The notes: generated by a model from the letters alone, not told the origin. DNA of 64,000 nt from an uncultured virus (IMG/VR IMGVR_UViG_3300022753_001683) (IMGVR_UViG_3300022753_001683), one strand, 5' to 3'; shown: positions 16,658-52,400, counted from the first letter of the stretch. A program made the numbers and translations.

Positions 16658-17662
16658 ATGCAATATGCTGATAGCAAAAATTTATTTGACCAACTATCTG
16701 AAGATTTTTCCAGAAAGTGTACAACAACTTCTCAGCCTATTAATTATCTAAAATTCTGTAATAACAATGGCCAAATTAATACTGATTTGGATATTCAGCG
16801 AGGTTACCAATGGGATGAAAAACGTCAGCAAGAGATGTGGAACAGTTTGCTGCTTAATGCTCATATTCCTGAATTCCATGCATTAATCCGCAATGATATT
16901 TACGACATTATTGATGGTAAACAGCGACTATTAACGATCTTTAAAATCATCAATGATGAAATTCCTCTGAAATACAGCTATGCAGGTCCCGAGCTGCACT
17001 GGCTTTTTACTCAAGGAAAAAATAAAGATGCTCTTGTCCGACAGATTAATTTTTCTTGTTTACCAAAGGAGTTGCAATATCGTATTTATAATACTACGAT
17101 TTTGATTACTACTTACTCTAATCTTGACAGAGATGAACAAATTATGCTCTTTAAAAAAATTAATAATGGTAAAGCATTAAGTGATTTTGCAAAAGGATTG
17201 TGCGAAAATTTCTTTATCCGCAAGGATGGTACTGCTGAAATGCTAAAGCATTCTGTGTTTAAAAATTCAGAATGGAAAGATGAAGAACAAGAGGCAATTG
17301 AGAAAGCGTTAGTTCGCTTTATGATTCTTAAGCATAAAAATATGGTAGTTTCTCTAGAACCCACAAAGATGATTAGTTACTATCCTGAATTTGATCGTGA
17401 CGTATTAAATTTGAGCGTTAAGCAAGTAAATGCTGTCTTAGATCGTATTCCCACTTTGCATAAAATTCTTAAATGCCGCGCTTGGGAATCTTATTTTCCA
17501 GCATTTTTAATAGTAGTTGATCGTCATCCTGAGCTTACAGCAGAACAAATTGACACCATGCTTGTAAAAATTCGTTCTTGTACTGCTGGGCGCGGAGCTG
17601 ATTTAAGAGCCAGTATTGTTGCTGAACGCATCGACACTGTAGAATCTTTAATTGACAATTAA
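16658..17662 (+). CDS. DUF262 (GmrSD/ParB-like) domain protein
   Basis: DIQRGYQW, IIDGKQRL and FKKIN are the three conserved DUF262 motifs; no C-terminal HNH seen. Confidence 0.8.
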   Translation: MQYADSKNLFDQLSEDFSRKCTTTSQPINYLKFCNNNGQINTDLDIQRGYQWDEKRQQEMWNSLLLNAHIPEFHALIRNDIYDIIDGKQRLLTIFKIINDEIPLKYSYAGPELHWLFTQGKNKDALVRQINFSCLPKELQYRIYNTTILITTYSNLDRDEQIMLFKKINNGKALSDFAKGLCENFFIRKDGTAEMLKHSVFKNSEWKDEEQEAIEKALVRFMILKHKNMVVSLEPTKMISYYPEFDRDVLNLSVKQVNAVLDRIPTLHKILKCRAWESYFPAFLIVVDRHPELTAEQIDTMLVKIRSCTAGRGADLRASIVAERIDTVESLIDN

Positions 17663-24680: not shown

Positions 24681-25163
24681 ATGCGATATGCTAACGTAAT
24701 TTGGAATGACATTGTTGCCGGCGACGGTTTATGTGTGTCATTTTATACGCAAGGTTGTCCGCATCGGTGTCCGGGTTGTCATAACCCGGAGACCTGGGAC
24801 TTTGAAGGAGGACAAGAATTCCCCGCATCCCTTTTGGACGACCTAATCCGAGGTCTTACCGCACAAGGTATTCAAAGACCCTTGTGCATCCTAGGCGGTG
24901 AACCGCTTTGTCCCGAGAATATTTTTCTTACTACACTATTAATTCGTACAGTGCGGGACAAGCTACCAGATACGCCTATATATGTGTGGACTGGTTATCT
25001 TTATGAAGATCTTCAAAAGATAGGTTCATCCCCACATTTATCATATATCCTTGATAACATTGACTATTTGATTGATGGCCCATATGATGCGACTAAGAGA
25101 AATATTACTCTTGGTTTGCGTGGTAGCGAGAATCAGAGAGTTTTCAAGTTTGACAGAAAATAA
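24681..25163 (+). CDS. nrdG: Anaerobic RNR activating protein (radical SAM)
   Basis: GCPHRCPGCHN, LGGEPL, IDGPY, LRGSENQR; adjacent to nrdD. Confidence 0.93.
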   Translation: MRYANVIWNDIVAGDGLCVSFYTQGCPHRCPGCHNPETWDFEGGQEFPASLLDDLIRGLTAQGIQRPLCILGGEPLCPENIFLTTLLIRTVRDKLPDTPIYVWTGYLYEDLQKIGSSPHLSYILDNIDYLIDGPYDATKRNITLGLRGSENQRVFKFDRK

Positions 25164-29707: not shown

Positions 29708-31678
29708 TTAAGCAACCGCCTTTGCAAGAGCTTCCCAAGTCTTGGGACCGCAAATGCCATCGACCTTAATATTTACTTTCTTCTGGAATGCGCGAACTGC
29801 ATTCACAGTTTTAGTGCCATAGTCACCATCAATACCATCTTTATTTTCGCCATAAGTACCAAGATCATATCCAAGTTTCTTCAAATTAGTTTGAAGAATT
29901 TTTACATAATCATTTTCAGCGCCTTTACGGATTGTTGGATATTTACTGAAATCAAGAGAAGGAGTGATTACGTTTTCATTATCATCATCAGAATCATCCT
30001 TACCTTGCGCAGCTTGAAGCTTTTTAAGAAGTTCTGCATCAACAATACCATCTGCCAAGATGCCATTATCACGTTCAAATTCTTTAACTGCAGTTGCGGT
30101 TTGAGAACCAAACTGACCATCAGCCTTATCTTCAAGTTCATATCCCAAATCCATTAAGATTTCCTGAAGTTCTTCAACATCAGCGCCAGTCATACCTTCT
30201 TTCAAAGGTAGACGCTCGCCAAGATCATAATCAGTCTTTTCGCCATCAAAAACAAGGAATGTATTCATAACATAACCATACTTGCCGTCAAAATAAGTTT
30301 TGCTCCAAGTTTCTTCACGCTCGTAAACATTAACCTTCTGGCCTTTAGGAATGCGAGCAAGAATGGACGCAGAGGTTGATTTGCCAGCACGCAAATTGAG
30401 TCTTCCAGAGACTGTAGTTACTACCGCAGTAGCAATAGGCTTAGGAGCTTCTACTTCTGGTTCTTCTGCTTTATATTCTCCAGATACGTATTTAATACCC
30501 GGAAATTCATACCAATCAGTCCAAGGACGTTTATTTAAATCGGTAATGATAATACCCTTAGCAAACCCATAAGCTTCAACAACTTTACCATTACCAATAT
30601 AATAGCCAACATGACCATCCTTGCGCACAGCAAGCCCAGGCACTTCTGGGATAGTTGCAATCTTACCATATTTTAAACCCTTGCTCTTGGCATAAGTGAA
30701 CATACTATTTGCAGATTTATCAGGGCAGTTATTTCCATATTTACTCTTGAAGGTCTTATCAGTACCAATAGATTCGATAACACCTTCACCGCCATAAGTC
30801 CAATTGTATCCTTTACCAAGTCCCACACAATCAGCAGAAACCATCTTCTTAGAAATGTGAGATTTATATGTAGCAGTACGATCACTACCATAATGAGAAG
30901 GATATTGATTAGTTTTACTCTTTAAAGTAGAAGTTGTACATTTATATACACAAGTGCCATACCAATATGGCTGGCCAACCATTGCTTTCAAAAATTCTAC
31001 AAAATGTAAGTTAGTATATTTTTCATATTGAGACATAACATTCCCTCCTTGGGGTTTACCTTCCGTCGTCCCGACGATAGGTTCGCTCGGTTGGGTTACC
31101 ACTACCTCGCCATAATTCTTGCGAATTTCTGTACCTGGATAGTAGAATGCCAAAATTTCATCATATTTAACACCAATAGAAGCTGCATACTTAGCGCCGG
31201 TTTGACTCATACCAACACCATGTCCATTCTTCTTGCCCTATGAGACGGCATAATCCCACGGGTCTTCTTGGGCGATTAAATATGCTCGCTTTCCGCCCCA
31301 CTTTTCCTCACTTGAGTAGGTGCGGCCGCCGTTCATAGCACTGTAATGTGCATTTGTAACGATCTTGTTATTATAATAAAGAACTTCACCCTTCGTCTCT
31401 TCAACTGCTTGATGTGCTCTTGCATATGAATTAGAGAAGCGTGAAGCGCGGAATGCCTAATCTGTTGAGGATTTGTCGCTAATAGATCCTTTACTCTAAT
31501 AGCGATATAAAGCGAAAGTGCGGGCCGCAACAGCTTGAGCTTTACCTGCTTCAAGAGCAGCATTACCTACTTCTGCGGGAACCACACCTTTTAGATATTC
31601 TTCAATATCAATTTCAATTTCATCTTTACCATAATAGTCAAGATTTTCGGAGCGAGTAAGTTTTACTTTAATTAGCAT
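29708..31678 (-). CDS. Multidomain endolysin (656 aa): SpoIID/LytB domain + NlpC/P60-like peptidase + SH3b + two peptidoglycan-binding domains; 3 in-frame TAG
   Basis: EEYLKGVVPAE...KAQAVAARTFA and GHGVGMSQTGA are SpoIID motifs, joined through TAG 31496, 31457, 31238; ADCVGL...GHVGYYIG; LNLRAG SH3b; DGQFGSQT and DGDYGTKT PG-binding repeats. Confidence 0.88.
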
Positions 31679-31692
31679 GCTTATTCCTCCTT

Positions 31693-31727
31693 AAAAAAAG
31701 AAGAGGGTTGTTTATTACAACCCTCTT
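31693..31727 (-). terminator. Intrinsic terminator closing the radical SAM operon
   Basis: AAGAGGGTTGT/ACAACCCTCTT stem with T-run on the - strand. Confidence 0.8.
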
Positions 31728-31731
31728 TACA

Positions 31732-32046
31732 TTATTCAACAATCTTCTTTAAGCGAAGATTTACTTCACGACGGTCAATTTCTTCATTCATGGTATCAAA
31801 CAAAGTATCAATCTTGAAATTATCAACCACATCGTACAAGAGCTCACCGTTCTTATCAAAAACATGTACAGCCTTAATAGTGATACCAACATAAGACTTA
31901 ATATCTTCGATGGTGTCTGCAAGACTAGCTGCTGTGTTATCAAGGTAGCAGTTAAAATCATTGCCGAGCTCGCCATTTTCAATATGGCTATAATTTACGC
32001 TACGAACGTCATAACGTGTTGCAGAATCGTTGAAACTAATAAACAT
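31732..32046 (-). CDS. Hypothetical protein (104 aa), last gene of the radical SAM operon
   Basis: SD AAGGAG, highly expressed codon bias, stop TAA. Confidence 0.75.
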   Translation of the reverse strand: MFISFNDSATRYDVRSVNYSHIENGELGNDFNCYLDNTAASLADTIEDIKSYVGITIKAVHVFDKNGELLYDVVDNFKIDTLFDTMNEEIDRREVNLRLKKIVE

Positions 32047-32062
32047 GTTTTATTCTCTCCTT

Positions 32063-32743
32063 TTAGTTTGCTGGTGGAGGTGGTGGAGGCGGGGGAGGAT
32101 TACATCCACACTCCTCGGGTTTACTTCCATTCCAATCAGAGTTTTTTGGCCCTTCCTCAGGCTTTACTAAACCAAGCGCAGTTAAATAAGTTTGAGAAAG
32201 GCGAAGAGAAGCAGGACGAGACTGACGCCAAGATCTGAGTTCTTTAACAATGCTAGAAGAAGCTTGCATTAATTCAAGATAACCAGCGCCCATTTGTGCC
32301 AATGTATATGTTGGCGCAAGAGTGTCTTGAATCAAACCAATGCGCTGGGCAATAGTCTGACTACGTTCATCTTCTGGACCATTAGACAATTTAAAGTCTA
32401 AATAGTTACCAAATACAGAGCAATATTGATGAACAATCGCGCACCAGGCACTCATAAAATCATTCCAGGGAAGCTTATCCTCAGTAAGAATAAGAGTTGG
32501 AAATTCATGTTCAATACGAATGAACATGTCTAAAGTGTCCTGAGAAATTGTAAATGCACCATCGTCCTCTCCCGGTTCCCAAGCTGTGATGGCATCAATT
32601 TGCTCCAATACTCTAATCATAATTAATGAAAGTTGCGGCTGAATGGCTGTTAAAATACGACCAATAGGACCCAAAGTATCAATTTCTTTCATCACATGAT
32701 AGCGGGCCTCGCCATAAGAAAAATTACGAATTTCAGTTAACAT
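32063..32743 (-). CDS. Hypothetical helical accessory protein (226 aa) with CGC-polyproline tail
   Basis: Start overlaps the end of the radical SAM gene; ends EECGCNPPPPPPPPPAN. Confidence 0.75.
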   Translation of the reverse strand: MLTEIRNFSYGEARYHVMKEIDTLGPIGRILTAIQPQLSLIMIRVLEQIDAITAWEPGEDDGAFTISQDTLDMFIRIEHEFPTLILTEDKLPWNDFMSAWCAIVHQYCSVFGNYLDFKLSNGPEDERSQTIAQRIGLIQDTLAPTYTLAQMGAGYLELMQASSSIVKELRSWRQSRPASLRLSQTYLTALGLVKPEEGPKNSDWNGSKPEECGCNPPPPPPPPPAN

Positions 32744-34121
32744 TTAACTCCGTTACCTCCTCAAGATATTTGAATTGCACTTTCTTTTCTTCAGACAAAT
32801 CTCTCCAAACTACACTCCACACCCCATGTTCTTGTAGCCATTTCATTTCAGTATAAATCATAGCATGAGCTACTGCACATACAGTAGGAATTGGAGTAAT
32901 TAAATTACGAGTGCATTCATATTGAGCACCAAGACAGGTGCCAGTACATAATTCATTAATAGGACATTGCGCACAATGCGGCAAAGATGCTTTATGCATA
33001 GAATATGTTGAAATTAACAATTCCGGATTGATGCATTCAAATTTCAAAATTTCTTTTTCATCAGGCACCAATTTACCATAATACATATCTTCATATCCTG
33101 TGCGGTGACATGGATACATCATTAAGTCACTTACACGTAATGTAAATTGGCTTTGAATACCGCAGGTAAGACCACGTCCACAAGTTGTTAAAGGCTGACT
33201 AAACATATTAAAACCATTTGCTTTAACTAACCAGCCTGCCATAGCATATGGATCTTTATTAATTTTATTTTCCCATACCCAATCAAGAACAAATCTCATA
33301 AATTTACACAAAGACTGAACTTGATCATAATTCCATTCTTCATTGCGGACATGCAATAAATACAGGCTCTCCCATGGGATATTGTGTTTTTCCATCATTT
33401 CTTGGAACCACAAGAAATTTTGAGGCCATGCATCAATATTTCTACTATATACCATTGGATGCAAGCCACCATGAATCATATGAGAAAATTGAAATGCACG
33501 ATCATAGTACTCGTCATCTCGCACACCACCACCCAAATCCACATCTAGATCATGTAGATAAGGACGATTGTCTTCCATATATTTTCCATCAAAACTCGCA
33601 CTAAGACCTAGAGTAATACCTATACTTTCGAATTTAGCATGAAGTTCTTTTACTCTTGCAGTTGCTTCTTCAGAACACACAAAAGTAAAATTAGTAGGAA
33701 TTACAATTTCAATTGGACGATATAAAGGATCTAAATCCTTAAAATGTTCATAAATAGTTTCTAATACTTTATATCCAACTTCTTGAGCTAATAATTCACC
33801 AGAGAAAATTTCAATGTTAGCGTTCCAATCATTATGAGTGTACCATTGTAAAATAGTTTTTAGATTTTCAATAGTACGCTCTTCGTTGAAACAATCTTCA
33901 CTAAAAATCTTTTTGCGATGACGATGTAAATAACAATATCTACAACCTAAATTGCAACGCGGTGAAATAATTAACTCAATATTTTTCATTTTCTGATCTC
34001 TTGGGGTATCAATAGAGAAATCATCATAAAAATATTTCTCAATTACCCAAGCGCCCAATTCATGATTTTCTTTTTGATATTGAGACAAACCAGTATCATT
34101 TACATTGCAATGCTCGGCCAT
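32733..34121 (-). CDS. Radical SAM/SPASM-domain peptide maturase-like enzyme
   Basis: CNLGCRYC; FSGELL, PTN, SFDG; SPASM cysteines CG...YPCHR...CAQCPINELCTGTC...C. Confidence 0.9.
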   Translation of the reverse strand: MAEHCNVNDTGLSQYQKENHELGAWVIEKYFYDDFSIDTPRDQKMKNIELIISPRCNLGCRYCYLHRHRKKIFSEDCFNEERTIENLKTILQWYTHNDWNANIEIFSGELLAQEVGYKVLETIYEHFKDLDPLYRPIEIVIPTNFTFVCSEEATARVKELHAKFESIGITLGLSASFDGKYMEDNRPYLHDLDVDLGGGVRDDEYYDRAFQFSHMIHGGLHPMVYSRNIDAWPQNFLWFQEMMEKHNIPWESLYLLHVRNEEWNYDQVQSLCKFMRFVLDWVWENKINKDPYAMAGWLVKANGFNMFSQPLTTCGRGLTCGIQSQFTLRVSDLMMYPCHRTGYEDMYYGKLVPDEKEILKFECINPELLISTYSMHKASLPHCAQCPINELCTGTCLGAQYECTRNLITPIPTVCAVAHAMIYTEMKWLQEHGVWSVVWRDLSEEKKVQFKYLEEVTELNVN

Positions 34122-35512
34122 GGTTTCATCGCTCCTCTATTTACTAAAATTTTATAATATCGCATCATTTCTTCCACAGCACCATTGCCTAATAAACGCA
34201 AATAACTGCAAGGTACAATAGAAGGATTAGTTGTATAGTCTTCCTCAACGCCAATATGACAATATAATCCACAAGTCATCATAAACATTAATAAACGATC
34301 ATCTTCATTATATGCATATTTACTGTTGATTTGTCCAGCGCAAGCCATTGTTACAGCCATTTGATCAAAGAAATATTTTCTAGACATAATATCGGCATGG
34401 AAAGACATAGAACCATAAGTGCGTTTCATCCAAACCTTATCATTAGTATTCATATTACATCCACTTTGCATTGCATGCTTAGTCTTCATTTTTTCATCAA
34501 GAGCTGCATTACGACAGAGACGATTACAAGTATAAATATTTCCTTCATGATCAATAGTAATATTATTCTTACTAGCGGAACAAGAATAAGAATTTTCTTG
34601 TGTCGCAATAGGATTGCCAGCTTCTGCTTGGAAAAATACTTCAGGTCCATTAAATAATTGACCAAAAAGAGGGCGACCATCATAGCAAGGTTTATCTTGT
34701 ACATTTACTCTCGGTAAAAAGCTAAGCCATTTTGCAAATGTCTCACCATCTTCTTGAGTATAATAGCCTGGGTCAACCAAAGTTGGGCAACCCGCAATTT
34801 GTAAACTAATATTTTTTTTACCTTCAATTAATTTATCGCATTCAACTTGTAAATCATTGAAGAATTTATAATACCAGTTAAATGAATCAATTCCTCTCTC
34901 ATTCATAATTTTCATATAACTAACATCTAATGTAGCTTTAGTATTAATTACAAGAGAGAAATATTCCATATCTGCAGGACAACGAGTTAAAATTTCTTTC
35001 ATAGTTTTAATTGTGCTCGCAGTCGCTCCAGGATGACGAGAATCATCATTAAATTCAGGTGGACCATCTAAAGACATTTGAAGATTAAAAGTGATTTTAC
35101 GTTTGTGGTGAGTTGCATAAACCATCATTGGCAAGAAAAAATCTTCATAAATGCGATCGCCCAAAAGAGCATTAGTAGAAAACATTACATCTTTAGCATT
35201 TGGATAATAGTCAAATAATGCTTCAAATGTTGCTCGCCAGTACTGACTATTAATTGTAGGTTCTGCGCCCCACAAACTTACATTTTCAATAGCATCACGG
35301 ATGCCTGCGGTGACACGTTTAACATTTTCTACAAAAGTTCCATCTTCAAGTGCTTGACGAATATCTCTATTATAAGAAGCCATGCACTTTTTTTCTTTTT
35401 CAATATAACAATATTTACATGCCATATTGCAATCTGATGACCAGTGTAGGCTGACGCTGGCTATATTAGCCAGCGCTTCGCCTAAATAATCAAGAGAAGG
35501 AATTTGTTTCAT
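34100..35512 (-). CDS. Radical SAM enzyme with Twitch/degenerate SPASM domain
   Basis: CNMACKYC; WGAEPT, STN, SLDGP; CSASKNNITIDHEGNIYTCNR; lacks the CxxC-x5-C-x3-C cluster. Confidence 0.88.
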   Translation of the reverse strand: MKQIPSLDYLGEALANIASVSLHWSSDCNMACKYCYIEKEKKCMASYNRDIRQALEDGTFVENVKRVTAGIRDAIENVSLWGAEPTINSQYWRATFEALFDYYPNAKDVMFSTNALLGDRIYEDFFLPMMVYATHHKRKITFNLQMSLDGPPEFNDDSRHPGATASTIKTMKEILTRCPADMEYFSLVINTKATLDVSYMKIMNERGIDSFNWYYKFFNDLQVECDKLIEGKKNISLQIAGCPTLVDPGYYTQEDGETFAKWLSFLPRVNVQDKPCYDGRPLFGQLFNGPEVFFQAEAGNPIATQENSYSCSASKNNITIDHEGNIYTCNRLCRNAALDEKMKTKHAMQSGCNMNTNDKVWMKRTYGSMSFHADIMSRKYFFDQMAVTMACAGQINSKYAYNEDDRLLMFMMTCGLYCHIGVEEDYTTNPSIVPCSYLRLLGNGAVEEMMRYYKILVNRGAMKPWPSIAM

Positions 35513-35533
35513 ATCTCCGTTTTCTCCTCTCGC

Positions 35534-37027
35534 TTAATTCGAGTAATTTCTTGAATAATAATTACTAGTATAATTACCAGTTTTATTGCCAGAATTATAT
35601 GTAGAATAGTTACCAGACTTATAAGTGGTATGATAACCTGTCTTATAGCTAGTATAATCCGCGGTATCATAACTATGATTGGTGCCATTATGAGAACTCT
35701 TGGCGCCACTGTCATTAGAAGAATAATAACTTCCATGATGGGAGGTATAATCCGCGCTATCATAGCTATAATTACTCGTTTTATAAGTTGTATAATGCGT
35801 TTTTGCGCTTGCATTATAACCACCATGATTACTTGTGTAATCTGCACTATCGTGAGAATATTTTCCACCATAGTGAGTAGTATAATTTGCGCCTTTTGCA
35901 GATGCATTATAAGTAGCAAAATTGCTGCCATTATATCCGGCATAATGAGTGTACTTTCCACTGTTATATCCAGTATAATCTCCACCATTAGCAGATGCGT
36001 AATATGAGCCTTTGTGCGTAGCATAGTTTGTGCTATGATAGGCATAATTACCACCATTGTGGACGGAATAATGTGCATTTGCTGTTGTATAATATCCGCC
36101 AAAATTATTAGTATTATAAGAACTTAAGTGACCAACTTTTTCACTCTAATAATGTGTACTATTATGACCAGATTTATGTGTAATATAATATGTTTCATAA
36201 TGAGCAGTATTTTGCCCAGTATAATGATTAACATAATAAGAAGTTTTTACTGTGGCATTATAATTAGTATAGTTTGCAGTATCATAAGTTACATAATGAG
36301 TAGTATAATATGTGGCATTATTTGAAGTATTGTAGCCTGCATAATGGCTATATTTTTGCGCACCATTATGTGTATCAAATTCAGTACTAAATTGATTACC
36401 AAAATGATCTGGACAATGTGAAGTATTATAAATTTGATAGTGCGTAGTATAATAATTAGTATAATACGCTTTATGGTTACTACTATAATCCGCAGACTTA
36501 TGAAGACGATTGCCCGTATAATAAGTTCCATGGAACTAATAATGAGCACTCTTATACGTTACATAATTTGTTGTATTATGTTCATAATTTCCACCAAAAT
36601 AAGAATAATAATGAGTACCATTATGAGTAGTATAATAATCTGCATAATGATTCGTATAATAACTTGCATTATGACCATATCGATGACTGTTAAAATACTC
36701 AGTATAATAAGAATTATGCCAAGCTGTCCAGTTATTAATATCATATCCGGTATAATAATTTACTAAATGCCCTGTATAATAAGCATCATTATATCCAGAT
36801 TTATGACCTGATTTATAAGATGAAAGATGCCCGTTATAATATGTACCTTTTTCACCATTGTGATGGGTAGCATAATGTCCACTATAATGTGAACTTAAAT
36901 GTCCGCTCAAGTGCCCTGAATAATATGCAGGGCAATGAGCAGCTTCTTGGGCCTAAATTGCAGTTAATGGATTATTTAAGTCAGAAGGAATAATTTTATT
37001 TCCTTTGACTGCTGTTGAAGTCGCCAT
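35534..37027 (-). CDS. Tyr/His/Asn-rich tetrapeptide-repeat protein B (497 aa), putative radical SAM substrate; 3 in-frame TAG
   Basis: SD AAGGAGG, ATG 37027; MATSTAVKGNKIIPSDLNNPLTAI(TAG)AQEAAHCPAY YSGH LSGH LSSH YSGH YATH...; open through TAG 36953, 36536, 36146 to TAA 35534; only the fragment 36536-36910 is in the ORF track. Confidence 0.85.
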
Positions 37028-37049
37028 TGTGGATTATTCCTCCTTTTTA

Positions 37050-38666
37050 TTAAGTTACAGTAACATTATGCGATTTATTACCAGCACGATAAGCGGTATA
37101 ATTAGAAGTATTATAAGTGCCATAATTAGCAGTATAATAACCTGTCTTATAATTACTATGGTTACCACTATTATAACCACTCCAGTGAGAATTACGAGCA
37201 GCATTTTGACCACTATTATAAGAGCTATCATGTCCACTCTTATTACCTGAATAATGACCACTATTATATCCGCTCCAGTGAGAACGCTGTGCAGTTAAAT
37301 TAGAGTTATTATATGTTGCATAGTTACCGCTTAAATGACTTGTATAATAACCACTATTATAACCACTCCAATGATTATTATAAGTGGAATAATTTGAACC
37401 ATTATGACTGGTGTAATGACCACTTAAATGTCCTGTATAATTACCATTATTTTCAGAGCTTCTATGAGAAGTATATACAGTCTTATTATGATTAGTGTAA
37501 TGCGTAGCATAATAACCACTTAAATGCCCTGTATAATCACCTGCATTGTGAGATACATAATGAGCTCTATAACCAGTTTGATATCCCATATTATGACTAG
37601 AATATCGTCCTGTATAATGAGTAGTATAATTATTACTATTATAAGTTGAATAATGATTATTTTTTCCTGTGTATTGAGCAGTATAATTAGAGCTTAAATA
37701 GCCAGAATTGTATCCAGTATAATTAGCTGCATCACGACTAGTGTATTGAGTACCATTATGCCCTGAATAATGCGTTTTTTGTCCTGCTTTATTTGTACTA
37801 TTATAGGTCGAATAATGAGTTGTATAATTAGTAGTTTTTGCTCCACTATTATAGGTGGAATAATGAGAGCTTCTGTGAGCATAATCATATGTTTCAAAAT
37901 GACTATCATAAGCAACAGCACGGTGAGATTTTGCTCCAATATGATAAGTGGTATATTGAGTACCGTAATAGCCAGTATAATGACTATTTTGATTAGTATA
38001 ATGACTATAATAATAATTATTATAATTAGTACTCTTATAAGAACTATCATGTGAACTATAATAACCACTATAATATTCTGCATTATGACTTTCAAATTCT
38101 GCCGCTCTATGATAAAAATGACTTTTTTCAGTAGTATTGCGAGTTGTATAATGAGTTGCATAATAAGTAGCATTTCTACCGCTGTAATGTGGAGCAAAAT
38201 ACGTATTATAATGAGCTTCACGATGAGCAGAATAATAAATACCACATGCTGCCCAGTTATCAAAATATTGCCAATTACTATGATGAGATCCATAGAAATC
38301 GGAATTATGAGTTGTATAATAGCTACTATAATGACTACTCTTATAACTACTTTCTCTGCCGCTATAATATGTTGCATTATATGAAGTATATTGTGTTGCA
38401 TAAACCGTAGATTTATGCGCATTTAAATATCCTGCATTATAAGCGGCACAACCGTAATTGATAGAACCAGCTTGGCTATCAATAACATCCGATAATTCTT
38501 TAGGCGAATTATAATTTAATTTAGAATTATAAACTGCAATAGGATCATGTTGCCAATTATATTTGGCTAAACCCAATTTATCAGTTCTAAAATTATCAAT
38601 TCGATTTCGAACTAATAAATAATCAGAATATGCAGTTTTCTAACCCGTTGAAACTGGTACCGCCAT
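37050..38666 (-). CDS. Tyr/His/Asn-rich tetrapeptide-repeat protein A (538 aa), putative radical SAM substrate; TAG at codon 9
   Basis: SD AAGGAGG, ATG 38666; MAVPVSTG(TAG)KTAYSDYLLVRNRID... continues in frame into the 508-aa ORF 37050-38576. Confidence 0.85.
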
Positions 38667-38695
38667 TCGTTCGCCCTCCTTTATCTCTATAAAAT

Positions 38696-38724
38696 ATTAT
38701 AACAAAAATTTTTATCTATGTCAA
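38696..38724 (-). promoter_or_regulatory. Perfect sigma-A promoter driving the repeat-protein/radical SAM operon
   Basis: Minus strand TTGACA(38724-38719)-17 nt-TATAAT(38701-38696) with TG extension, 30 nt before ATG 38666. Confidence 0.85.
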
Positions 38725-38758
38725 AAAAAAATATGGCCGCAATTAAGCGGCCATATTT
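38723..38758 (-). terminator. Intrinsic terminator after the tail fibre gene; its T-tract runs into the -35 box of the next promoter
   Basis: AAATATGGCCGC/GCGGCCATATTT stem with a long T-run on the - strand. Confidence 0.8.
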
Positions 38759-38946
38759 ACTATAAAATTTTAACATAAAGTTAAAATATATATATTCACA
38801 TTTACCGCAATCACCATGGGTTGCGTGATGTGGGATTTATCGGACAACATTCAAAATTTAATGTCTATGAAGTAATAGATAAATACCACCAAATCTGTTA
38901 AACAGCAATTTTTCAATCAATTGGTGTGTATTTTATATAAAAATTA

Positions 38947-41900
38947 TTAACGAACTTTAATCCAGATTCGTCCATTTACTTCAACATTACCAGTGCCCCA
39001 AGTCTCATAATTAGGGATTTCAGAAACAGTGCCAACAATACGATCAGGATACATCATAATTTCTTCTCTTGTCATTAAACTAACAGTGCCATTCGGACCA
39101 GTACATACTGCTGCACCAAGAGGATAAGAATTTCTATCTTCATAAGTATATGCTAAAGCACGTCCAGCAACCGCCAAAGGAGTTTTACATTCGTTTGTTT
39201 CACCCATAGCAGAACCAAAAGTATCAGATACAATACTTGCCCCAGCCTACAGTCTCTCTGTTGAAATTTTCATTTCTCCAGAAATATCTTCTATTACCAC
39301 TCGGCCTGGCTCAACTGTTTCTGCTTTTCTAAATTCAGCATAGTCATTCCAAACAGCATTATATACTTTAGTACCATAAATAGCTCCAGCAACACCAAGA
39401 CCACCAGATACTTTTAATGCACCAGAAGTAGTATTTGTTGCTGCGGTAGTATTTGTAATAGATACTACACCAGTAAATGTTTTAGTACCAGCAAAAGATT
39501 GTGTGCCGGTAGTTACAACGCCAGCTTGATTTGTTGCAGCATTAGGAACATATAATGTAGCAACGCCAGTGCCAGTAGCAATACTTAATCCACCAGTATA
39601 AGTCGGAGTATGATAATAGTTAGTGTTAGTATTTGGATTTGCTGGCATAGTTACCTTTAAGTCTACTCCAGCGACAGTACCAATAGTACTTGTTTGTCCC
39701 CATGCTAAAGTAGGGCCGCTATTAGTTACCGCTTTCCAAGAAGGAGCGGCAGAAGAGCCACCACTTGTTAAAATCTAACCCGCAGTTCCTGTACCCAAAG
39801 AAGCAAGAGCAGAAGAACTTGATGCATATACTAATCCATATGCTGTCCAAGATGTTTTTCCAGTACCGCCGTGACCGACCCCTAAAGTGCCAGTAATACC
39901 AGGACGTGGGCTCGCCGCAAATACGTTAGCCGCGGTAGTAGAGCCAAGATTAACCAACATGGATGGATTTGAAGTAATTCCAGTACCACCATAAGCTACA
40001 GCAAGAGCATTGGTTAATTGTAAAGTAGGAATGGAGGTTGTACCATAAAATGTTACATCTTTATTATCCATTCCAATTCGCATTGCATTATTAAAAGTTG
40101 CTTCTGTGCTGGTGTTAGTTCCAGAACCAGAGGTTTGAAGCACAAAATAATTTGCATTAGATGATCCAGTTCCTAAAACACCCGCACGCCATTCTGCCCC
40201 ATAATTGGTAGTTTGATGTTCCCAAATAATAAACTTATCAGTATCACCAGTTAAAATACGAATATCGTCATTAAAGGTTTTTGCACCAGCAAATGTTTGC
40301 GCGCCAGTGGTGACAACGCCTCCTTGCGTAGCATTTGCTGCATCAAGCGTAACAGTTCTATTTTTTCCTGCGACAGTAATAGATAAAGTTTCACCATTAG
40401 CTCCTGCAGTAGAACTAAAGTTGCTAAATAGTGAGCTCGCATCACAAGATGTTATTATACCACCGTTTAAATAAACTGGTACACTTGCACTACCAGCTGT
40501 TCCAGTTAATGCTTTAATTTCACCACTAGACATATAGACAGGCTGAGTAGTTGAACCAAGAGTGGAGGATGATGCTGTTAATGTACCAGCATTTAAGAAG
40601 ATTGGTTTTGCGCTTGCACCAACACTGGCGCCAGAAGCCTTAATTATACCATCTTCCATATAAATTGGTTTAGTCGCGCTACCAATATCTGAGGTAGACG
40701 CTGTGATTGTACCACTATTTAAAAATACTGGATTATTAGATGCACCAACAGTAGAGGACGATGCTGTTAATGTACCAGCATTTAGATACATAGGAACAAT
40801 ACCAGATCCAACCGTAGAAGTGGATGCTGTTGCTGCACCATCTGCTGCGATATATACAGGCTTTACTCCAGAACCAATTGCAGTATCATTGGTATGAACT
40901 ACAAACTGATATCCCGTAGTAGATGCTGCGACATTAGGTAAATTAAATACGTTACTATTCGCCGTACCAGAATCAATGCGAACGTCATAATCAGCAGTAG
41001 AAGCATTGGTCTTATGAAAGTCTAAATAACGACCAATTTCACTTACACCAGATCCATTAACAGTAACAAAACCATTGTTAAACCATGCGCCAGATTTTGG
41101 TAAAGTAATAGTAATAGTTTCATCCGCGCCCTTATTGGTATGACCATAAGTATCAACAGTAATCTGCGGAATGGCAAAAGAGGTTGCGGCTCCAGTTAAT
41201 GTTGTAACAGTATTGCCGCTAGTATAACCACTACTTGGTCCCTTCTTAGCATGCTTTGCGTCATAGGTGACTCCGTTAGTTCCAGCAGTACCAGTTAAAA
41301 CAACAATATCATCATCTGTTGCTGTTGCACTAATATTAATCTATACATTCTTTTTAGTGACAGTAATTTTACCATTGGTATCTTGGCTAATAGTATCAAT
41401 AAAAGCGGATGCATTACCTGATGTACCTGGGCTAGACACAGCAGTTTGAAGAACCTTGTAGCTACCTTCATCACCAAGCAATTCCCAGCGACTATTGTAA
41501 CTATTCCAAACATATTCTTTTGTGCCATAAATAACCACATCGCCAGCTAAACGATCATCGGGCCAAGTATATCCAGAAATTTTAGGATCAGTATTACTTT
41601 GATTTGTGATAGCTACGGTAGCAACACCGATATAATGCATTGCATTTGTTAAACCAAGATTAATACGTAGCTGCTCGGCAGTAATTGAACCTCCAAGAGA
41701 AACACTTGTGCCTGCAATATTAACTGAAGAATTAACTAATTTATTATTAGCAATTGATCCCGCTAACATAGCATTGGTAACTTTACCAGTGCCAATAGTA
41801 GTAGTGATGTTCCAATCGGCACTTCCATTAGAAGAGCCTGTGCCACCTACGTCTCCACTTAAAGTAACTGCTCGTGATGCATTAAGTTTAGAAGCAGAAG

Positions 41901-43281
41901 TGGCATTACCACTGAATGTAGTTGCATATACAGTTCCTTGCGCATAAATATTCTTCCATCTAGCAGTATCTGTACCAAGACTATATGTATTATGTGCAGA
42001 AGGATTAATATGTTGAGCAGTGGTAGTTCCACCAATTGTAGCACCACTCGCACCAATTTCTGCCTTTTTAGCAACAATAGTTTCACCAAATGTTGCACCA
42101 CCAGTAACGGTTAATGCTTGTGTAGCATGATTACTACCAATAACTGCTGTTCCAGTACTTGTTAACTTTGCAGAAGCAGTAATATATGGAGCAGAAATAG
42201 TGCCTTCAGAACTAATATTTCCAACCGCTGCAATAGTAGAAGATGCACTTATAGCACCAGTAAAAGAAGATGTTTCAGTTACAGCAAGAGTGCTTTGTAA
42301 TGTGGTTGCGCCAGTTGCTTTTAAAGTTCCATTAGCAACAATATTTTTTAAATTTGCAACGCCAGCTCCACTAACATAATATGTTGTACCACCAAAATAT
42401 AAAGAAGTGCCTGACGCTACAGTTGTTTTATTATTTAAAGCTACTGTATTAGTAAAAGTAGTAGCTCCATTGAAAGCCGCAGTTCCAGAGGCGGTCAAAT
42501 TAGAAGCAATAGCTACAGGAACCGCTGCGATGTTTAATGTATTTGTTGTGTCAGAAAGAGTTTGATAAATAATAAATTGAGAGGCTTTATTATCAAAGAT
42601 ACCTCTTGTTACAGAAGTTGCTTTCATTTGCCATCCATGAGAACTGTTTTTCACATTAACATAAGCATCTCCACTAGAAGTGTTGATTGTTAATGGACCA
42701 GTCATCGTATCGCCATCAATATTCACATATAAATCATCTAAAGCAGCTTCACAGTTTGTTAAAAAATTATTAACTGTTAAAATCGGACTATTATTGTGAT
42801 ATAAATTGCTAGCATCACTTGTATATAAATACAACCCTCCAACTTGAGGATTTGTAGATTCTGCCAAACTTAAAATTGCCTTACCAGCGCTATCTTTAAT
42901 AGCTTGCCCACTACTAAGAGTGACACCAGAAGACAGAACAGGGGAGGACTTAAAAGTCTTCACTCCATAAATTTCTTGAGCAACTAAGCTCAAAACACCA
43001 GAATGGTCTGATGAAGCATATGGCAATTCTCTAATTGCCTCTTGACCACCAACTTCTAATTTAATACAGCTGGCTTTTTCATCGTCGCCATCTGCTTTCA
43101 CAAAAGTGATTACAGGCGCACCTGTTAATAAATCTGCGTACTAAGCATTTAACGGCACTCTCTCTGTGGCAGTATCAATATAAAACTTACCATTATCAGG
43201 AGTAAAATAAGCATAACCTTCAGTTATTTTTTGATTACCTAAGCTTGCCGCAGGACCTTTAAAAATCTTAAAAAGAGCCAA
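38947..43281 (-). CDS. Long tail fibre/spike protein (1444 aa) with C-terminal intramolecular-chaperone-like domain; 4 in-frame TAG
   Basis: TTG 43281 with SD GGAGG; four track ORFs fuse in one frame via TAG 43141, 41341, 39775, 39247; Gly/Thr/Ser/Ala-rich; GRYLDFH...DYDVRI, GTAG(TAG)ILTSGG, VWNDYAE...PLAVAGR. Confidence 0.85.
40450..40885 (-). repeat. About 7 tandem ~21-aa repeats within the tail fibre (GSxxxPVYLNxGxxTASSSTV-like)
   Basis: GSGVKPVYIAADG, GSGIVPMYLNAG, GASNNPVFLNSG, GSATKPIYMEDG, GASAKPIFLNAG, GSTTQPVYMSSG, GSASVPVYLNGG. Confidence 0.8.
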
Positions 43282-46483: not shown

Positions 46484-49400
46484 TTAAGCTTGCATAATTT
46501 GGACAAGATTTGGATTAGCTGTAATATGAAGATCATAGTTAGTAATCCAATCATCTACATAGGAAAGAATTTCATCATATGAAGTACTGTTATTATCGTA
46601 AGTAACAACAAAACTACTTAAAGATAAATATTCTTGAGAGCTTGCACCAAACATGGCATTTGTTGACAACCAAGTTAAAGCGTTTGCATTAATTGGTCTT
46701 TGAGCGGTGCCAAAATTAATAATAGACCAACCACAGTTTTGGAATGTCTTATTACCATAAGCAGCACCAAAATCTTCAATACCATCATTGTTAGTGTCTC
46801 CAAGACTGTACTCATTATAAGGAACAGTAAGAACAACACAATCCTTATTTCGGCATGCATTTGCAAATGCACTATTGCCAAAATAGCTAACATTGTTAGT
46901 ATTGTCAACCACTAAATTAGTACAATTTCTGAAGCAGAAAGTTCCAATAGTAGTTAGTGAGTCAGGGAAATCAACATGAACTAAGCTGGTTGCTTTATCA
47001 AATGCAAAATCATTAAATTTATAAATCTTACTTAAATTCTCTGCATTTTCTTGACAACCTAAGAAGAACACAGCGTACAGATCAGTATTTTGACACATAC
47101 CATTAGATACAGAGCCTGTTGCAGAAGTACCTGCAGCAATTTCTAAGATCGGCCATTCGACACCTTGTTCATCAAATACGGTAATTGGGAAACAAACTTT
47201 TCCACCAATGCCATAAGTAGGATCAAGACCAACAATAGCATAATTGCCAAGAACGGCGTCTGTTTTATAAGTAATATTTAAATACTGCTGATCAATTATA
47301 TTGTCATAAACACTACTTTCCATGTAAACCGCATAGAAGTTCATGTCGCTACCTGCTAAAATACGATTTAAATCGGTGGTGTCAGTAGAAGAAGTAAGAG
47401 AAGTATGCCAACCAATAAATTTATAACAAGAAGTCAAAGCCAAAGAGGTGCTATCTCTTTGAGGAATTCTAGTAGGAGTAATAATTGGCTTACCAGCAGG
47501 AGTTTCAATTTCTTCAAACAAAGAGCCATCATAATTATAAAAGCTCATAGTATAACCATGCACTTTATATACTGCAACAACAGTTACGCGTCCACCATCA
47601 ATAGCAGATAAGACGTGAGTATTTAATTCATTAGTTGCATAAAGTGTAACTTTATCATTATCGGTAATTACGGAATGTGCCGCTCTAAAATCAAATGTGC
47701 CATCTTCAATTGCCCAACCAACAAAGTCATAATGCAATCTAGAAGGTTCTTCTCCTTCGTAAACTACTGGGGACTCAGCATATCCATAAGGATACTTTAA
47801 CCATCCAAGTGTCTTTTGAACACCTTCTGCATTATATTCAACAAAATGAACAGAATAAGCAGGATTTACTTTGTCACCAGTAATTTCAAGATCTGGATAA
47901 AGTGCATTATAACGTTTCCACAAAGTATATTCGTCTAATGCATCTCCCTCTTCCTGATTGTTCACGTGCATACGACCAGTTAAGCCTGGAAGAATTTTAG
48001 TATTTGGTAAAAGTTCATTATAAGTTAAGAAAGAGCGGTAACGATAAGTATCAGTTTCCACAGTTGCGGTTTTATCCTCATACATATCTAAGAAAGCTGT
48101 TACAATATCAAGATTTTTAATGACGTTTGTATCAAAAGCATCATCAAAAGTATAAATTACACCATCATTAAGTTTATTGATCCAGCCTTCCTCATAATAA
48201 CCAGTAGCTCCGTTAGGATCATGGTATACTTCGTAAGTGGTTTGATTTTTTAATTCATAATACTTTGTTGCACGATCGAAAGATGTACCAATTTCAACTA
48301 ATTTATATGGAGACCATTCCACATCGGTAAAGTCACACTTTAAAATAGGTGTGGTATTTCCATCAGTAATAATGCCATTGTGTTTAGCTTCTTTTACTTT
48401 ATATAAGTAATCTAACAAACGATAAGAATCAATACCCATTTTACTTCTGTCTAATACAAATGTCTCAATATTACAAGTTGTATTAGCATTAGGAGTAGTG
48501 GTATATTTATCTGTTAAATTCTTAATATATAAACCAGTTGGAGTATTATCAATGGTTGGAGCTGTTTCTACAATACCCCTTAATTCAAGAGGTTGTTTCA
48601 AAACAAAGGAGGTAATTGTTTCTGGCAAGTACAAGGTCTTTAACAAGTTACCTTCAGTAAACTCGACAGAACTTAATTGTGTACCTGTTGCCATAAAAGT
48701 ATTAATTTTTTCAGCACCAGTTAATTGAAGAGAACCAGCCAACTTAGTTAAATTAGATAGGTCCATATATGTCAAAAGTCCTTTTGGACTTGTAGCAGTG
48801 ATAGCCAAAGCATCAATAAATTTATCTGTGATACCATCATTGCGATAGCCATCTATCAAAGAACCAAGTGTGAAAGTACGCAAACGAATTGCTTGAGAAT
48901 AGTCAATTTCATTAAGGTACTTGTCACTTAAGTTGCCAAGATCCGCGATATATTCTGGACCGCGAATATAAGCCAACTGTTGAGACAATGGAACGCCATC
49001 GTCTAAGCGGTTTTTAATAGAAGATGGTGGGTCAATAAGAACAGGATCGTCTTGACCGGCAACATAAGGCTTAGGCGTGGTAGCAGTTTCATCATATACT
49101 ACAGATAGATACTGAGATAAGTATCCATGTAGATTGAATGATGCACTTGCCTGCAAACCTTCTACTAAGTTACCTTCTTCATCTTTAGTATCATCAGAAG
49201 TACGAGCAAGGTCGTTTGCATTATAACGCAATTTAATTTGCTTCTTAATAAATTCAGGATTATAAGAACCACCTAACCACTGAGAGTCAAGATAATTCAA
49301 ACGATTGCGGAAGAATGCTTGACGATTTAAAGTTCTATCACCTTGCAAGCAGTAGAAATAACCTTCAGTTTGAGAAATAGTTCCTTCTTGATCGGTATAT

Positions 49401-52400
49401 CCTGTAGTTGCAGGAGAGATATATTTATAATCAGCGTCAATGTTCTTCATAATTTCGCTCCACTTGTCAGAACCATTGGTATTATAATGTTCATTAAGTG
49501 TATCGAGTTCAATCGCACCTTCATTGCGTAAGCCGCGATAAATTGCTAAAATTTTGTCCATCATTAATCCAGCGAAGTTGATCCATAAAACTGAACCAGC
49601 ACCAGAGAAGATGGAAGCATCTTTAAATGCATGACCTGTGTCGTCATAAATATCAGGATCTTCAGATACTAATGTTGCATCAGTGTTGTAGTCCCAAGAA
49701 ACATGTCCGGAATTGTTTACACCTAACTGAGTATCAATATCGTAGAAAATTGGGAACCAAATAAAATCACCGTTAGCATTAGACTTAGCAGTTGGACCCC
49801 ATGTTGCAATCATCATATTCTTTTGACGAGAGTCATAGCACAAAAGCAATTCAGTCATAATGAAATAGATTGCACAATAATCAAGATCAAAGTGCTCAGT
49901 AAATTCATTTCTGAACTTAGCTTTTCTATAGCGGATAGAGTCAGTATCAAATTTCTCATAAAGATCTGCGCTAAAACCTTCCCAGACCAAATTTACTTCA
50001 ATAGTAAATTCATCACGAGCATAGTTTTCACTAATCTCTAATCCACAATTTGCAACTGCCTCTTGGTCACTACCTTCAGGCATTTCGTAATAGAATAATC
50101 CATCTTCATGTTTTACAAAAGTATAAGGTCCAACGTATTTCTCATAATCATGAGTCATACCATTAGCTTTATCTTCTTCAGTCAGAGTGCCATTTACAGC
50201 TACTAAGAAATCAGTAAATGTCTTAAGATTATTAACAATTACGCTATTTGCATTATCTGTTTCATTCAAAGTCTGATAAGCAGCTTGAATGGTAGGAGTA
50301 ATATTTGCTTTTGTATAAGTCTGATCTGCGCCAAGAGTATAATAAGTAACACCATGCTCATATTGAGAAGATAAGGTTAAATAATATTTGGTCGCATCTA
50401 ATGCACTACCAGTGAACTTTGTGGTATCTGTGCTATGTACCCAATCCCACATTACCTTAAAATTCTTGGTATGATCTTTAATATACTGATTTGCTACACC
50501 AATCTCATTATCTTTATAAACATCTCCGATATCCCAGTCTTCATAAGTATAACGAGGCTCGAAATGATTATAAATTTGTAGACGACCAGCATTTTCTTCA
50601 GTGTTAGGAATTAATTCGTAGAAACCATTCACATCATCGCTTTGGAATTTACCAAGACCAGACTGGTTCTGGCAGAATTCCCAACATTCGGCTAACTCGC
50701 CAAAAGTACTCTTACGAGGCGTAGTTTCTTCTCTTAGCTCTTCATCATCGCTTAATTCATCGACCTTCTGCCAAGAGGTATGAATCTTTTCTACGGAATA
50801 TGGATTATATACACGTTTTGTTGGGTCTAAATCCCATCCAAAGTCAAAGCCAAATGTATTGGTAGCACCCTTATCAAGATTAAAATTGTACTTACCAACA
50901 TACTCAATATTACCATCAATGTCTTCCCAGAATACCAAAATTGGGAATCCGAAAACAGTGGTTCTATAATCTTTGGTTTGACCAAAATATTTCTTTAATG
51001 GATGTCTCAAGTCTGCACTCTTGTCACTGCCAGTTTGATTTGCAATAGTCTGGATCAAATTGGCAAATTGCGTATTATGTGTACTTGAACTTTCCATATA
51101 GTCAGCTTTTAAACAGAAAGTCTTCGCGGCGATACCATTACCAATATCAATTTTAGAAATCATTTTACTTTCGTCATTATGATCTTGATACCAGTAATCT
51201 TTCTTGTTTTCGTCGCCATCCCAAGTTTCAAAGCGGAAAGGTTTGTCCCAACTTGTAATACCAGAAACTTTTTCTTGGGTCTTTAACTTATAATTACGAC
51301 GTGGATAACCCTGAGAAGAAGTTCCTTGCACGTCCAATTCAACATTCTGACAATGGAAGCCTTGACTTGGTTTAGCTGGATTCCAGAAACGAATACCAAC
51401 AGCTTTCTTGTTTCCTTTTGCGTAAGGAAGTTTATTGTCAGCCGTAGCACCTACATCAGAATTTTTATAAGTTGTAATAACCATTGTTGGGATAATATCT
51501 GCTTGACGCACTTTAGCATAATCAATTTTATTACTTTCAACAATAGAACCATTGCGATTATAACGATTATGTCTCTCATCAAGAGTTGGAGCATCACCAA
51601 TCCAGTTTTGAGTAATCGCAGAATAATTTAATGCATTTGTGTAAACACGAATATTAAAAATATCAACATCACAATAATCAGAGTTAATAACAATCTTATC
51701 AACGGAAGCGCTAAAGTCATCATTAGAAGTAAATTTCATAATATTGGTCAAAACACCATTAACATATAAATAAATTAATGGAATAGTATTTGAAGTTGGA
51801 GCACCAGTTTCTGTATTATAAATCTGAGTAAATTTACCAGCTGCATCTACTACGATAGAAATTTTTACTCTTTCATCATCGGTATAACGAGCATTAACAA
51901 CTTTAGTTTTAGAAAGACTGAAGAAAGCCTCTTGAGTACCAAGCATAAAACCACGATAGTTGCTAGGATTAAAATATGTTAAAAATGCTCCTTCGCCACT
52001 AGATACAGTTTTTACCTGTTCAGTTTCTGGAGTTCCATCTTCGTCGAACATTGGGTTGCCATTAGCATCAATCTTTTGTACTGCTTTTTCAATAATTAAG
52101 CGAGAGTAATCAACAGCATTACGAACTTTAAAATCAAATTCATAAGTACGAGAAGCCGCTTTGACAGTAGACATCGCTGCTAAAGGAATTTCAACAGAAG
52201 CACCATTGCTAACTCTTAAACAAGTACCTTCAGATTCATCCTCAATCCAACCATTATTAGCCCAGTTAAAATTATTAAATTTAATTTCTCCAAGACCAAT
52301 AGTATCATCTTGAGTTTCTGCTTTGTTTGGCCATTGTTGACGTTTATTTGGGGTTTCTAGATTAGAACGTCCAAGAGCATTCAAATATAAAACTGCACCT

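Follow-up and report, generated by a model that had tools for sequence, protein, structure and literature searches.

Which proteins do two adjacent radical S-adenosylmethionine (SAM) enzymes of a large uncultured gut phage act on? The question is raised by a cassette at positions 31693..38758 of a 64,000-nucleotide (nt) stretch of the virus IMGVR_UViG_3300022753_001683 (this whole stretch is called the window, and positions are counted from its first letter). The cassette encodes two large repeat proteins, A and B, two radical SAM enzymes, rSAM1 and rSAM2, and an all-helical protein, p226. We read it as a phage-borne radical SAM system that would modify A and B as whole proteins, and from the sequence data we give this reading a probability of about 0.6. 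The main new result is the conservation of the gene layout. Homologues of the two enzymes are almost always paired and lie beside repeat proteins of the same design, which supports A and B as their probable substrates, as proposed earlier by a model that had seen the sequence alone (the sequence-only reading below). The features of the cassette, from upstream to downstream, are as follows.

38729..38758, minus strand: upstream intrinsic terminator (12-base-pair stem with 6 GC pairs, then a T run)
38696..38724, minus strand: sigma-70-type promoter (TTGACA, 17-nt spacer, TG-TATAAT; 12/12 match plus extended -10)
37050..38666, minus strand: repeat protein A, 538 amino acids (aa), TAG at codon 9
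35534..37027, minus strand: repeat protein B, 497 aa, TAG at codons 25, 164 and 294
34100..35512, minus strand: rSAM1, 470 aa, radical SAM
32733..34121, minus strand: rSAM2, 462 aa, radical SAM, probable SPASM
32063..32743, minus strand: p226, all-helical accessory protein
31732..32046, minus strand: p104, small protein of the same transcription unit
31701..31727, minus strand: downstream intrinsic terminator (11-base-pair stem, then a T run)

Re-calling the open reading frames (ORFs) returned the gene order, coordinates, sizes and strand of the sequence-only reading, and a signal scan returned its terminators and perfect promoter. GGAGG-type Shine-Dalgarno sequences precede all six genes, and all six stop at TAA or TGA. 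The overlap is 22 nt between the rSAM1 and rSAM2 genes and 11 nt between rSAM2 and p226.

Conservation of the gene layout

Seventy loci were compared (31 viral loci, 13 contigs of species genomes, all of them metagenome bins, and 26 metagenome loci), and a family member was called at E<1e-10 in 60 of these. There is some redundancy in the set: L002 is the same as L001, the four loci L005-L008 are near-identical to one another, and L047 closely resembles L004. Both enzymes are present in 31/31 viral loci; in 28 of these their genes are neighbours, and in three they lie about 1.3 kb from each other. Across the 60 loci, 53 hold both rSAM1 and rSAM2; six of the seven without the full pair end at a contig edge, and the seventh is L051, to which we return below. 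In 29 of 30 distinct viral loci, an ORF of low complexity is located on the same strand no more than 3 kb from the pair, as compared to 3/30 for the far flanks. Over all collections, a repeat or leader ORF is shown by 48/60 loci; L028 and L053 hold repeat ORFs that escape the low-complexity filter, and nine further loci are without all or most of the upstream flank. The linkage between the pair and a repeat ORF persists at rSAM1 identities down to 23% and in varied orders, with the repeat ORF upstream of, between or downstream of the enzyme genes.

p226 is also a conserved part of the module. Its family comprises 40 ORFs in 36/70 loci, located behind rSAM2 in most and behind rSAM1 in L051. The sequence-only reading had counted p104 in the system as well, but homologues of p104 occur in only four loci, from two distinct phage types, which places it outside the conserved module.

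Phages carry radical SAM enzymes for other uses, an example in the window being an NrdG-type activase (24681-25163). The cassette could similarly hold coincidental neighbours, with A and B as unmodified structural proteins and the enzymes acting on a nucleotide, a cofactor or a host protein; weak viperin and MoaA matches in the hit lists of the enzymes would fit this. Those matches, however, cover only the N-terminal cluster-binding region (the only PADLOC matches, to viperin models, are of the same region), the pair-repeat linkage extends across divergent loci and gene orders, and a conserved recognition domain stands directly ahead of every core. A coincidental arrangement is very unlikely on this evidence.

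Some loci depart from the window's arrangement. The three viral loci with separated enzyme genes (L014, L015 and L025) have the precursors between these genes and a p226-type gene behind each radical SAM gene. One contig (L059:800-8946) holds two complete modules in tandem, each with precursors, rSAM1, rSAM2 and a p226-type gene.

Repeat proteins and their leader domain

Protein A consists of 17% Tyr, 14% Ser, 12% Asn, 11% Thr, 8% His and 8% Gly, and B is alike. Y, S, N, T, H, G, A and K together account for 81% of A and 85% of B; the bias noted in the sequence-only reading is real, although its wording that the cores are made "almost only" of these residues was somewhat generous. The small residues (Gly, Ser, Thr and Ala) recur with a period of four (autocorrelation +0.66 at lag 4 and -0.69 at lag 2 in A; +0.57 and -0.62 in B), giving a repeat unit [Y/H/N/Q/R]-[Y/N/K/D/L]-[S/T/A/G]-[G/S/T/A]. 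About 115 such tetrads were counted per protein, in keeping with the earlier estimate of on the order of 100 sites each. Strict tetrads contain Tyr, His, Trp or Phe in 50 of 57 cases in A and 38 of 43 in B, and there are 75 (A) and 69 (B) Tyr/His-x-Ser/Thr sites. Each protein has two Cys. The leader of A is about 80 aa long (recognition domain at residues ~14-92, with a Cys at its end) and precedes a core of about 455 aa. The leader of B, about 32 aa, ends in a His-Cys-Pro motif (residues 31-33) and precedes a core of about 467 aa; this HCP junction is kept in 6/8 aligned B-type leaders. Neither A nor B has a match in Pfam, NCBIfam, PHROGs or PADLOC, and at E<=0.01 no NCBIfam family is found for A, B or p226.

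Repetitive AT-rich DNA opens long spurious ORFs in other frames and on the opposite strand of this region, and the A and B frames could be suspected to be chance products of the same kind. Both have strong ribosome-binding sites and ATG starts, and homologues with conserved leaders (A' and B') exist in L046, L045, L004 and L003. The N-terminus of A matches the family leader profile, which was built from other phages (20.6 bits). Two further sequencing runs yielded contigs that span the cassette free of indels, at about 98.3% identity (7066 nt and 6321 nt covered, with 120 and 113 substitutions; 189 variant sites over the cassette). An artefact of this sort is scarcely credible.

Most loci encode two paralogues, one with a long and one with a short leader; each leader ends in Cys, where the repeats start. 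The long leader is about 72 aa (consensus MxFxWT..G..I...NEVKTN.D..Y..LG...W..LPV..G..I.....ELR.A.DYA.D.N.C) and the short version about 35 aa. Against 1.84 billion representatives, the leader profile matches 901 clusters at E<=1e-3, of which 197 reach E<=1e-10. The best 150 matches carry the domain at the N-terminus; their lengths have a median of about 162 aa and, barring two long proteins, do not exceed 330 aa, and period 4 is present in 112 of 136 cores. One match, P0341 (1480 aa, with HAMP repeats), was rejected as a false positive of the profile. When 24 precursors were compared with PHROGs, 21 had no match and three had weak, unrelated ones. For the window and its nearest relatives, the sizes of the pairs are:

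L003: A-type 171 aa, B-type 99 aa
L045: A-type ~225 aa, B-type ~190 aa
L004: A-type 364 aa, B-type 286 aa
L046: A-type 400 aa, B-type 353 aa
window: A 538 aa, B 497 aa, the largest pair seen

A and B are therefore unusually large for the family. Composition differs between lineages: the window cores are rich in Tyr, His and Asn, others in Asp, Tyr and Val or in Thr, His and Asn, and the charge ranges from His-rich to strongly acidic, with up to 28% Asp. Over 759 units from 148 proteins, the first repeat position is Tyr in 21%, Val in 18%, Asn in 11%, Asp in 11% and His in 10%; the second is Asn in 24%, Asp in 23% and Tyr in 14%; and the third is Ser in 43%. The family is defined by its period and its small positions, not by aromatic residues. 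Sub-clades with periods of 3, 5 or 7 exist, and in these the third gene differs. About 1.4 kb upstream of one module, a protein (L011:5651-6532) has a long Gly-Tyr/Phe-Ser triplet run (period 3), followed by an ordinary C-terminal domain.

In the AlphaFold2 (AF2) model of the long leader, the predicted local distance difference test (pLDDT) score is 92-97 over residues 1-70. In some relatives the leader domain lies inside larger proteins, of which it and the repeat core make up the C-terminal part: the two follow a Laminin_G_3 lectin domain in a 594-aa protein (L012:5778-7559), stand at the end of a 482-aa protein (L057:800-2245) and are preceded by DUF5000/galactose-binding-type domains in P0259. 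The leader proposed in the sequence-only reading is thus a folded domain. Family scans of the cassette proteins found no protease or exporter, in agreement with the sequence-only reading; none was noticed beside the modules of other loci while their ORFs were read, and the sole protease-type PHROG match among the flanking ORFs is located about 1.3 kb downstream in L010. Because the leader is folded, is internal in some relatives and has no detected protease or exporter to serve it, we read it as a recognition domain that stays on the protein, and we take the product to be probably full-length.

A leader followed by a repetitive core does resemble the precursors of multi-core RiPPs (peptides made by the ribosome and modified after translation). 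The enzymes fall in the SPASM/twitch maturase group, and the many Tyr/His-x-Ser/Thr tetrads fit the triceptide motif. If A and B were classical precursors of this type, a host protease or a distant phage one would remove the leader, and about 100 units would be freed at lysis as bioactive peptides. The units, however, vary freely and have no conserved cleavage sites, and core length ranges from ~50 to ~470 aa among relatives whose enzymes are 51-55% identical. Taken with the internal leader domains and the lack of a detected protease or exporter, this renders release of small peptides quite unlikely.

Enzymes, helper and known systems

rSAM1 passes the radical SAM model PF04055 (32.4 bits, cut-off 29.5). 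Its CxxxCxxC motif (C28, C32 and C35) and a WGAEPT motif are both kept in 27 aligned homologues. Only three C-terminal Cys are invariant (C311, C329 and C418), a twitch-like or partial SPASM arrangement. rSAM2 scores 24.9 bits against PF04055, under the 29.5 cut-off, and its C56, C60 and C63 are invariant in 26 sequences. It has seven invariant C-terminal Cys (C320, C338, C383, C386, C392, C396 and C415), which include the CX2CX5CX3C pattern of SPASM; against the SPASM model TIGR04085 it scores 21.8 bits (cut-off 27) and a relative in L037 28.0 bits. Homologues of rSAM1 form 73 clusters and those of rSAM2 at least 404, nearly all unnamed and from metagenomes. The top curated matches of both enzymes are peptide and protein maturases (PapB, anSME, twitch-domain proteins, YhhB, HxsB and DynA) rather than cofactor or nucleotide families, with all scores far under the cut-offs. 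With this and the linkage to repeat proteins, the substrate proposal of the sequence-only reading survives the refuting conditions that it had set for sequence data. The nearest solved relatives of the rSAM1 profile are an entry named "ChlB radical SAM domain" (E 3.8e-7), 8vpo, anSME and CteB, which align over the N-terminal half only. We take this PDB entry to be the triceptide enzyme ChlB. ChlB is described as a triceptide synthase acting on a YDR motif (PMC11499958), and 8VPO is cited in a paper on cyclopropyl synthases (PMC10878394).

The AF2 model of p226 is confident (pLDDT 79.5) and has nine helices. The family shares a C-terminal motif P-x-x-(F/Y/L)-x-(L/I)-S-(K/R)-x-Y-L. At the C-terminus of p226 (32063-32110 in the window) and of its four closest relatives there is a run of 8-9 Pro; some have a second Pro run, and distant members have none. 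A word-index search gave five close clusters, and Pfam, NCBIfam and PHROGs gave no family match. No RiPP recognition element (PqqD-like) was matched in the six cassette proteins by Pfam or NCBIfam models.

We propose that rSAM1 and rSAM2 would each work with a p226-type helical helper and would recognise the folded, Cys-ending domain N-terminal of each core. The enzymes would then act repeatedly along the ~115 small-small-X-X tetrads of each protein, where abstraction of a hydrogen from a repeat residue, at a carbon of its side chain or backbone, could lead to cross-links or epimerised residues. Cross-links at Tyr/His-x-Ser/Thr fit the window locus but not the family as a whole, which would be better matched by epimerisation or oxidation at the conserved small positions. 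Homology supports neither chemistry.

Among the known maturases, PapB, of the ranthipeptide type, is the top NCBIfam match of both window enzymes (49 and 48 bits). The cut-off is 340 bits, and with two Cys each in A and B, repeated thioethers are impossible. anSME and QhpD modify whole proteins and not short peptides; there is no sulfatase motif here. The CXXX-repeat maturases (TIGR04115) combine a radical SAM maturase with a substrate of tetrapeptide period, and the sequence-only reading had pointed to them. rSAM1 reaches only 25.6 bits against a cut-off of 350, and the small-small-X-X repeats have no periodic Cys.

The triceptide synthases (YhhB, GrrM/OscB, XyeB, HaaB, HtkB and ChlB) are likewise SPASM-type enzymes and act on repeated aromatic-X-X motifs, including those with His or Tyr (motif as defined in PMC11499958). 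The window cores are rich in Tyr/His-x-Ser/Thr, and the best solved relative of the rSAM1 profile bears the name ChlB. The scores are low, however (YhhB 29.7 against 445 bits, GrrM 32.7 against 310 bits; XyeB, AmcB and FxsB, other cyclophane synthases, no higher than 32.7). There are two enzymes and a helper here as compared to one enzyme, the aromatics at the first repeat position are not conserved family-wide, and each substrate is a protein of 100-540 aa whose recognition domain is folded.

The closest known system by architecture is HXS. Li et al. (Nat Commun 2026, PMC13128918) describe it as an anti-phage system, 99.7% in Pseudomonadota, in which the His-x-Ser repeat effector HxsA is matured by HxsB, HxsC and HxsD, and HxsC binds HxsD. 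The likeness is in layout only (a repeat-protein substrate, two adjacent radical SAM genes and a small helper), and in both cases the substrate would be a whole protein rather than a short peptide. By the family models, membership fails. The best score in the window is that of rSAM2 against HxsB (TIGR03978), 25.6 bits with a cut-off of 370; neither enzyme matches HxsC (TIGR03977, cut-off 267.9) at E<=0.01, and A, B and p226 match no Hxs model, including HxsD (TIGR03976) and HxsA (TIGR03979). HXS is chromosomal whereas the window module is phage-borne, the gene order is unlike, and HxsA has five His-x-Ser repeats and a peptidoglycan-binding domain whereas A and B have ~115 tetrads each and no such domain. 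The sequence-only reading did not recognise this as a described family, and literature searches found no description of the module itself, but a published architectural analogue does exist.

Some relatives come closer to HXS. Those in L017 score 38.7 bits against HxsB and 27.7 bits against HxsC, below the cut-offs. A third type of precursor (L037:5146-5577, L053:2822-3433 and L043:4916-5653) has a Lys-rich N-terminus, a hydrophobic segment and a His-x-Ser or Cys/Asp-rich core, and lies beside the same rSAM1-rSAM2-p226 set. The L037 precursor (55.6 bits; HxsA3, NF038309, cut-off 65 bits) and the L053 precursor (51.1 bits; HxsA4, NF038313, cut-off 55 bits) are just under the cut-off, and literal His-x-Ser runs are present in L024, also below the HxsA3/HxsA4 cut-off. 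These precursors, the four-part layout, and the moron-like placing of a strong promoter of its own between two terminators all favour HXS-like effectors, intracellular or associated with the cell wall, as which matured A and B would block the DNA entry of competing phages (superinfection exclusion) or counter a host defence. Against it stand the failed Hxs models; A and B also show no N-terminal signal-like segment such as the L037 precursor has and, by Pfam, no peptidoglycan-binding domain. The core charge varies, to as much as 28% Asp, and the family can therefore have no common mechanism of DNA binding by charge. In cellular genomes the module is close to absent (13 contigs of metagenome-assembled genomes among 185,579 species genomes; rSAM2 in 1/401 sampled genomes of one phylum, this being the genome used as starting point), and the cassette lies among late tail genes. 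We regard this as the main rival and as unlikely.

Modification of A and B as whole proteins by a phage-borne pair of enzymes remains our preferred reading. The sequences show how the genes are arranged, that this arrangement is conserved, the class of the enzymes and the grammar of the repeats; that A and B are the substrates, that p226 helps, the kind of chemistry and a place in the virion are inferred. The phage location, the paired substrates with a folded domain and the extreme size of A and B set the cassette apart from known radical SAM maturation of repeat precursors.

Recoding, genomic context and product

The A and B frames are intact only with TAG read through. The same applies to the two genes that flank the cassette:

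38947..43281, minus strand: tail-fibre protein, 1444 aa, 4 TAG, directly upstream of the cassette
29708..31678, minus strand: endolysin with SpoIID, SH3_3 and PG_binding_1 domains, 3 TAG, directly downstream

With TAG read through, the tail fibre is a single frame of 1444 aa, and the lysin is 656 aa with the SpoIID, SH3 and peptidoglycan-binding domains in one frame across its three TAG codons. In the identical IMG/VR locus (L001), ORFs of at least 150 aa total 6571 aa with TAG read through versus 4873 aa with table 11. Codon 74 of the lysin, a TAG, falls opposite a conserved Gln when aligned to two solved SpoIID sequences; because of this alignment, Gln is a reasonable working reading of TAG, as in the table 15 used by the sequence-only reading. 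A tRNA scan found none in the window and none in a 112.8-kb record. In a near-identical 168.7-kb virus record, where the cassette is 100% identical, there is a tRNA array with 37 tRNA-model matches. This array contains a tRNA of 91 nt with anticodon CUA (L078:2764-2854, record G001), and its long variable arm, as in class II tRNAs, led us to consider Ser as an alternative. However, the D-arm, anticodon arm and G73 of this tRNA, as well as its mismatched 1:72 pair, resemble the tRNA-Gln(CUG) of the phage, and lysin codon 74 aligns with Gln, which leaves Gln as the working reading and Ser as a candidate. Within the cassette, TAG is confined to A and B; rSAM1, rSAM2, p226 and p104 have none. With TAG in the substrates and not in the enzymes, A and B would be made only under active TAG suppression, and recoding would separate enzyme from substrate synthesis in time.

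The upstream terminator closes the tail-fibre transcript and insulates the cassette. Promoter-like sites are not in excess overall (41 versus 44.6 in shuffled controls). What stands out is the single perfect promoter, the only one within 31000-39500, immediately behind the terminator. In at least 17 loci, the module has a homologue of the window's fibre upstream of it. Of the nearest flanking ORFs, 22/83 match a PHROG; eight of the nine functionally labelled upstream neighbours are tail or virion-structural proteins and one is a lysin or peptidase, and two downstream neighbours are endolysins.

The lectin-domain fusions in relatives, together with the lack of a protease or exporter, suggest a full-length, fibre-like product rather than a cleaved peptide. 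Under the proposed mechanism this would be a heavily modified protein of the tail-fibre/host-contact module. From the tail-fibre/lysis position and the lectin fusions, a fibre-like or host-contact role is possible, at somewhat less than even odds. In a fuller and tentative version, about a hundred modifications per ~500-residue repeat protein would yield hardened or adhesive host-contact appendages on the virion, with translation of the substrates gated by recoding. To our knowledge, this would be the first radical SAM post-translational maturation of a virus-particle protein, and A and B would be by far the largest RiPP-like substrates. Phages would be using radical chemistry of the peptide-antibiotic type on large proteins of their own, a class of virion or effector maturation not known from cultured phages. 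The module would also provide an enzyme-substrate pair that is natural and processive, in which the repeat grammar is simple and the recognition domain portable; this would be useful for enzymology and for the production of modified protein polymers. As to scale, none of the 901 leader-profile clusters and at least 404 rSAM2 clusters is annotated, and the layout is common to many uncultivated phages.

Several observations weigh against our reading. Many of the loci come from few phage lineages, and the counts overstate their independence. In L051 (313-7696), rSAM1 is followed by a p226-type gene and by four radical SAM ORFs of other kinds, and rSAM2 is missing; in L058, the 2.3 kb upstream contain no repeat ORF. 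The curated-family matches of the enzymes are at most 56 bits against cut-offs of 170-855, and with scores so far under the cut-offs the chemistry cannot be read from homology. Tyr and His together make up only 31% of first repeat positions family-wide, which speaks against a cyclophane at every unit; the His-Tyr or cyclophane link per unit, taken up from known examples in the sequence-only reading, is not a property of the family, and the Tyr/His richness is specific to the window's lineage. AF2 gives the repeat core a low pLDDT of about 45-55. The leader model has no informative fold match (none in BFVD at E<=1e-3; best VIA-wide Z 5.2), nor has p226 (none by Foldseek at E<=1e-3; best VIA-wide Z 8.9, to a generic helical structure; no usable match in the ESM Atlas). 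In addition, 61/83 flanking ORFs have no PHROG match.

Cassette queries had no tblastn match in GenBank phage records, and there was none in plasmids. Literature searches for phage-encoded radical SAM or RiPP systems turned up no description of the module. The cassette or parts of it were found in runs of 15 studies, with animal gut or faeces samples in the records; no RNA run is listed among those that contain it. The plus-strand half of the window carries replication genes, among them those for an anaerobic ribonucleotide reductase and its activase. Interspersed with the replication genes are a gene of the DAHP-synthase family (15828-16637) and one whose product has an N-terminal GmrSD domain (16658-17662). 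At 46484-53797, the window encodes a late protein of 2437 aa with a BspA-type leucine-rich repeat region near its C-terminus.

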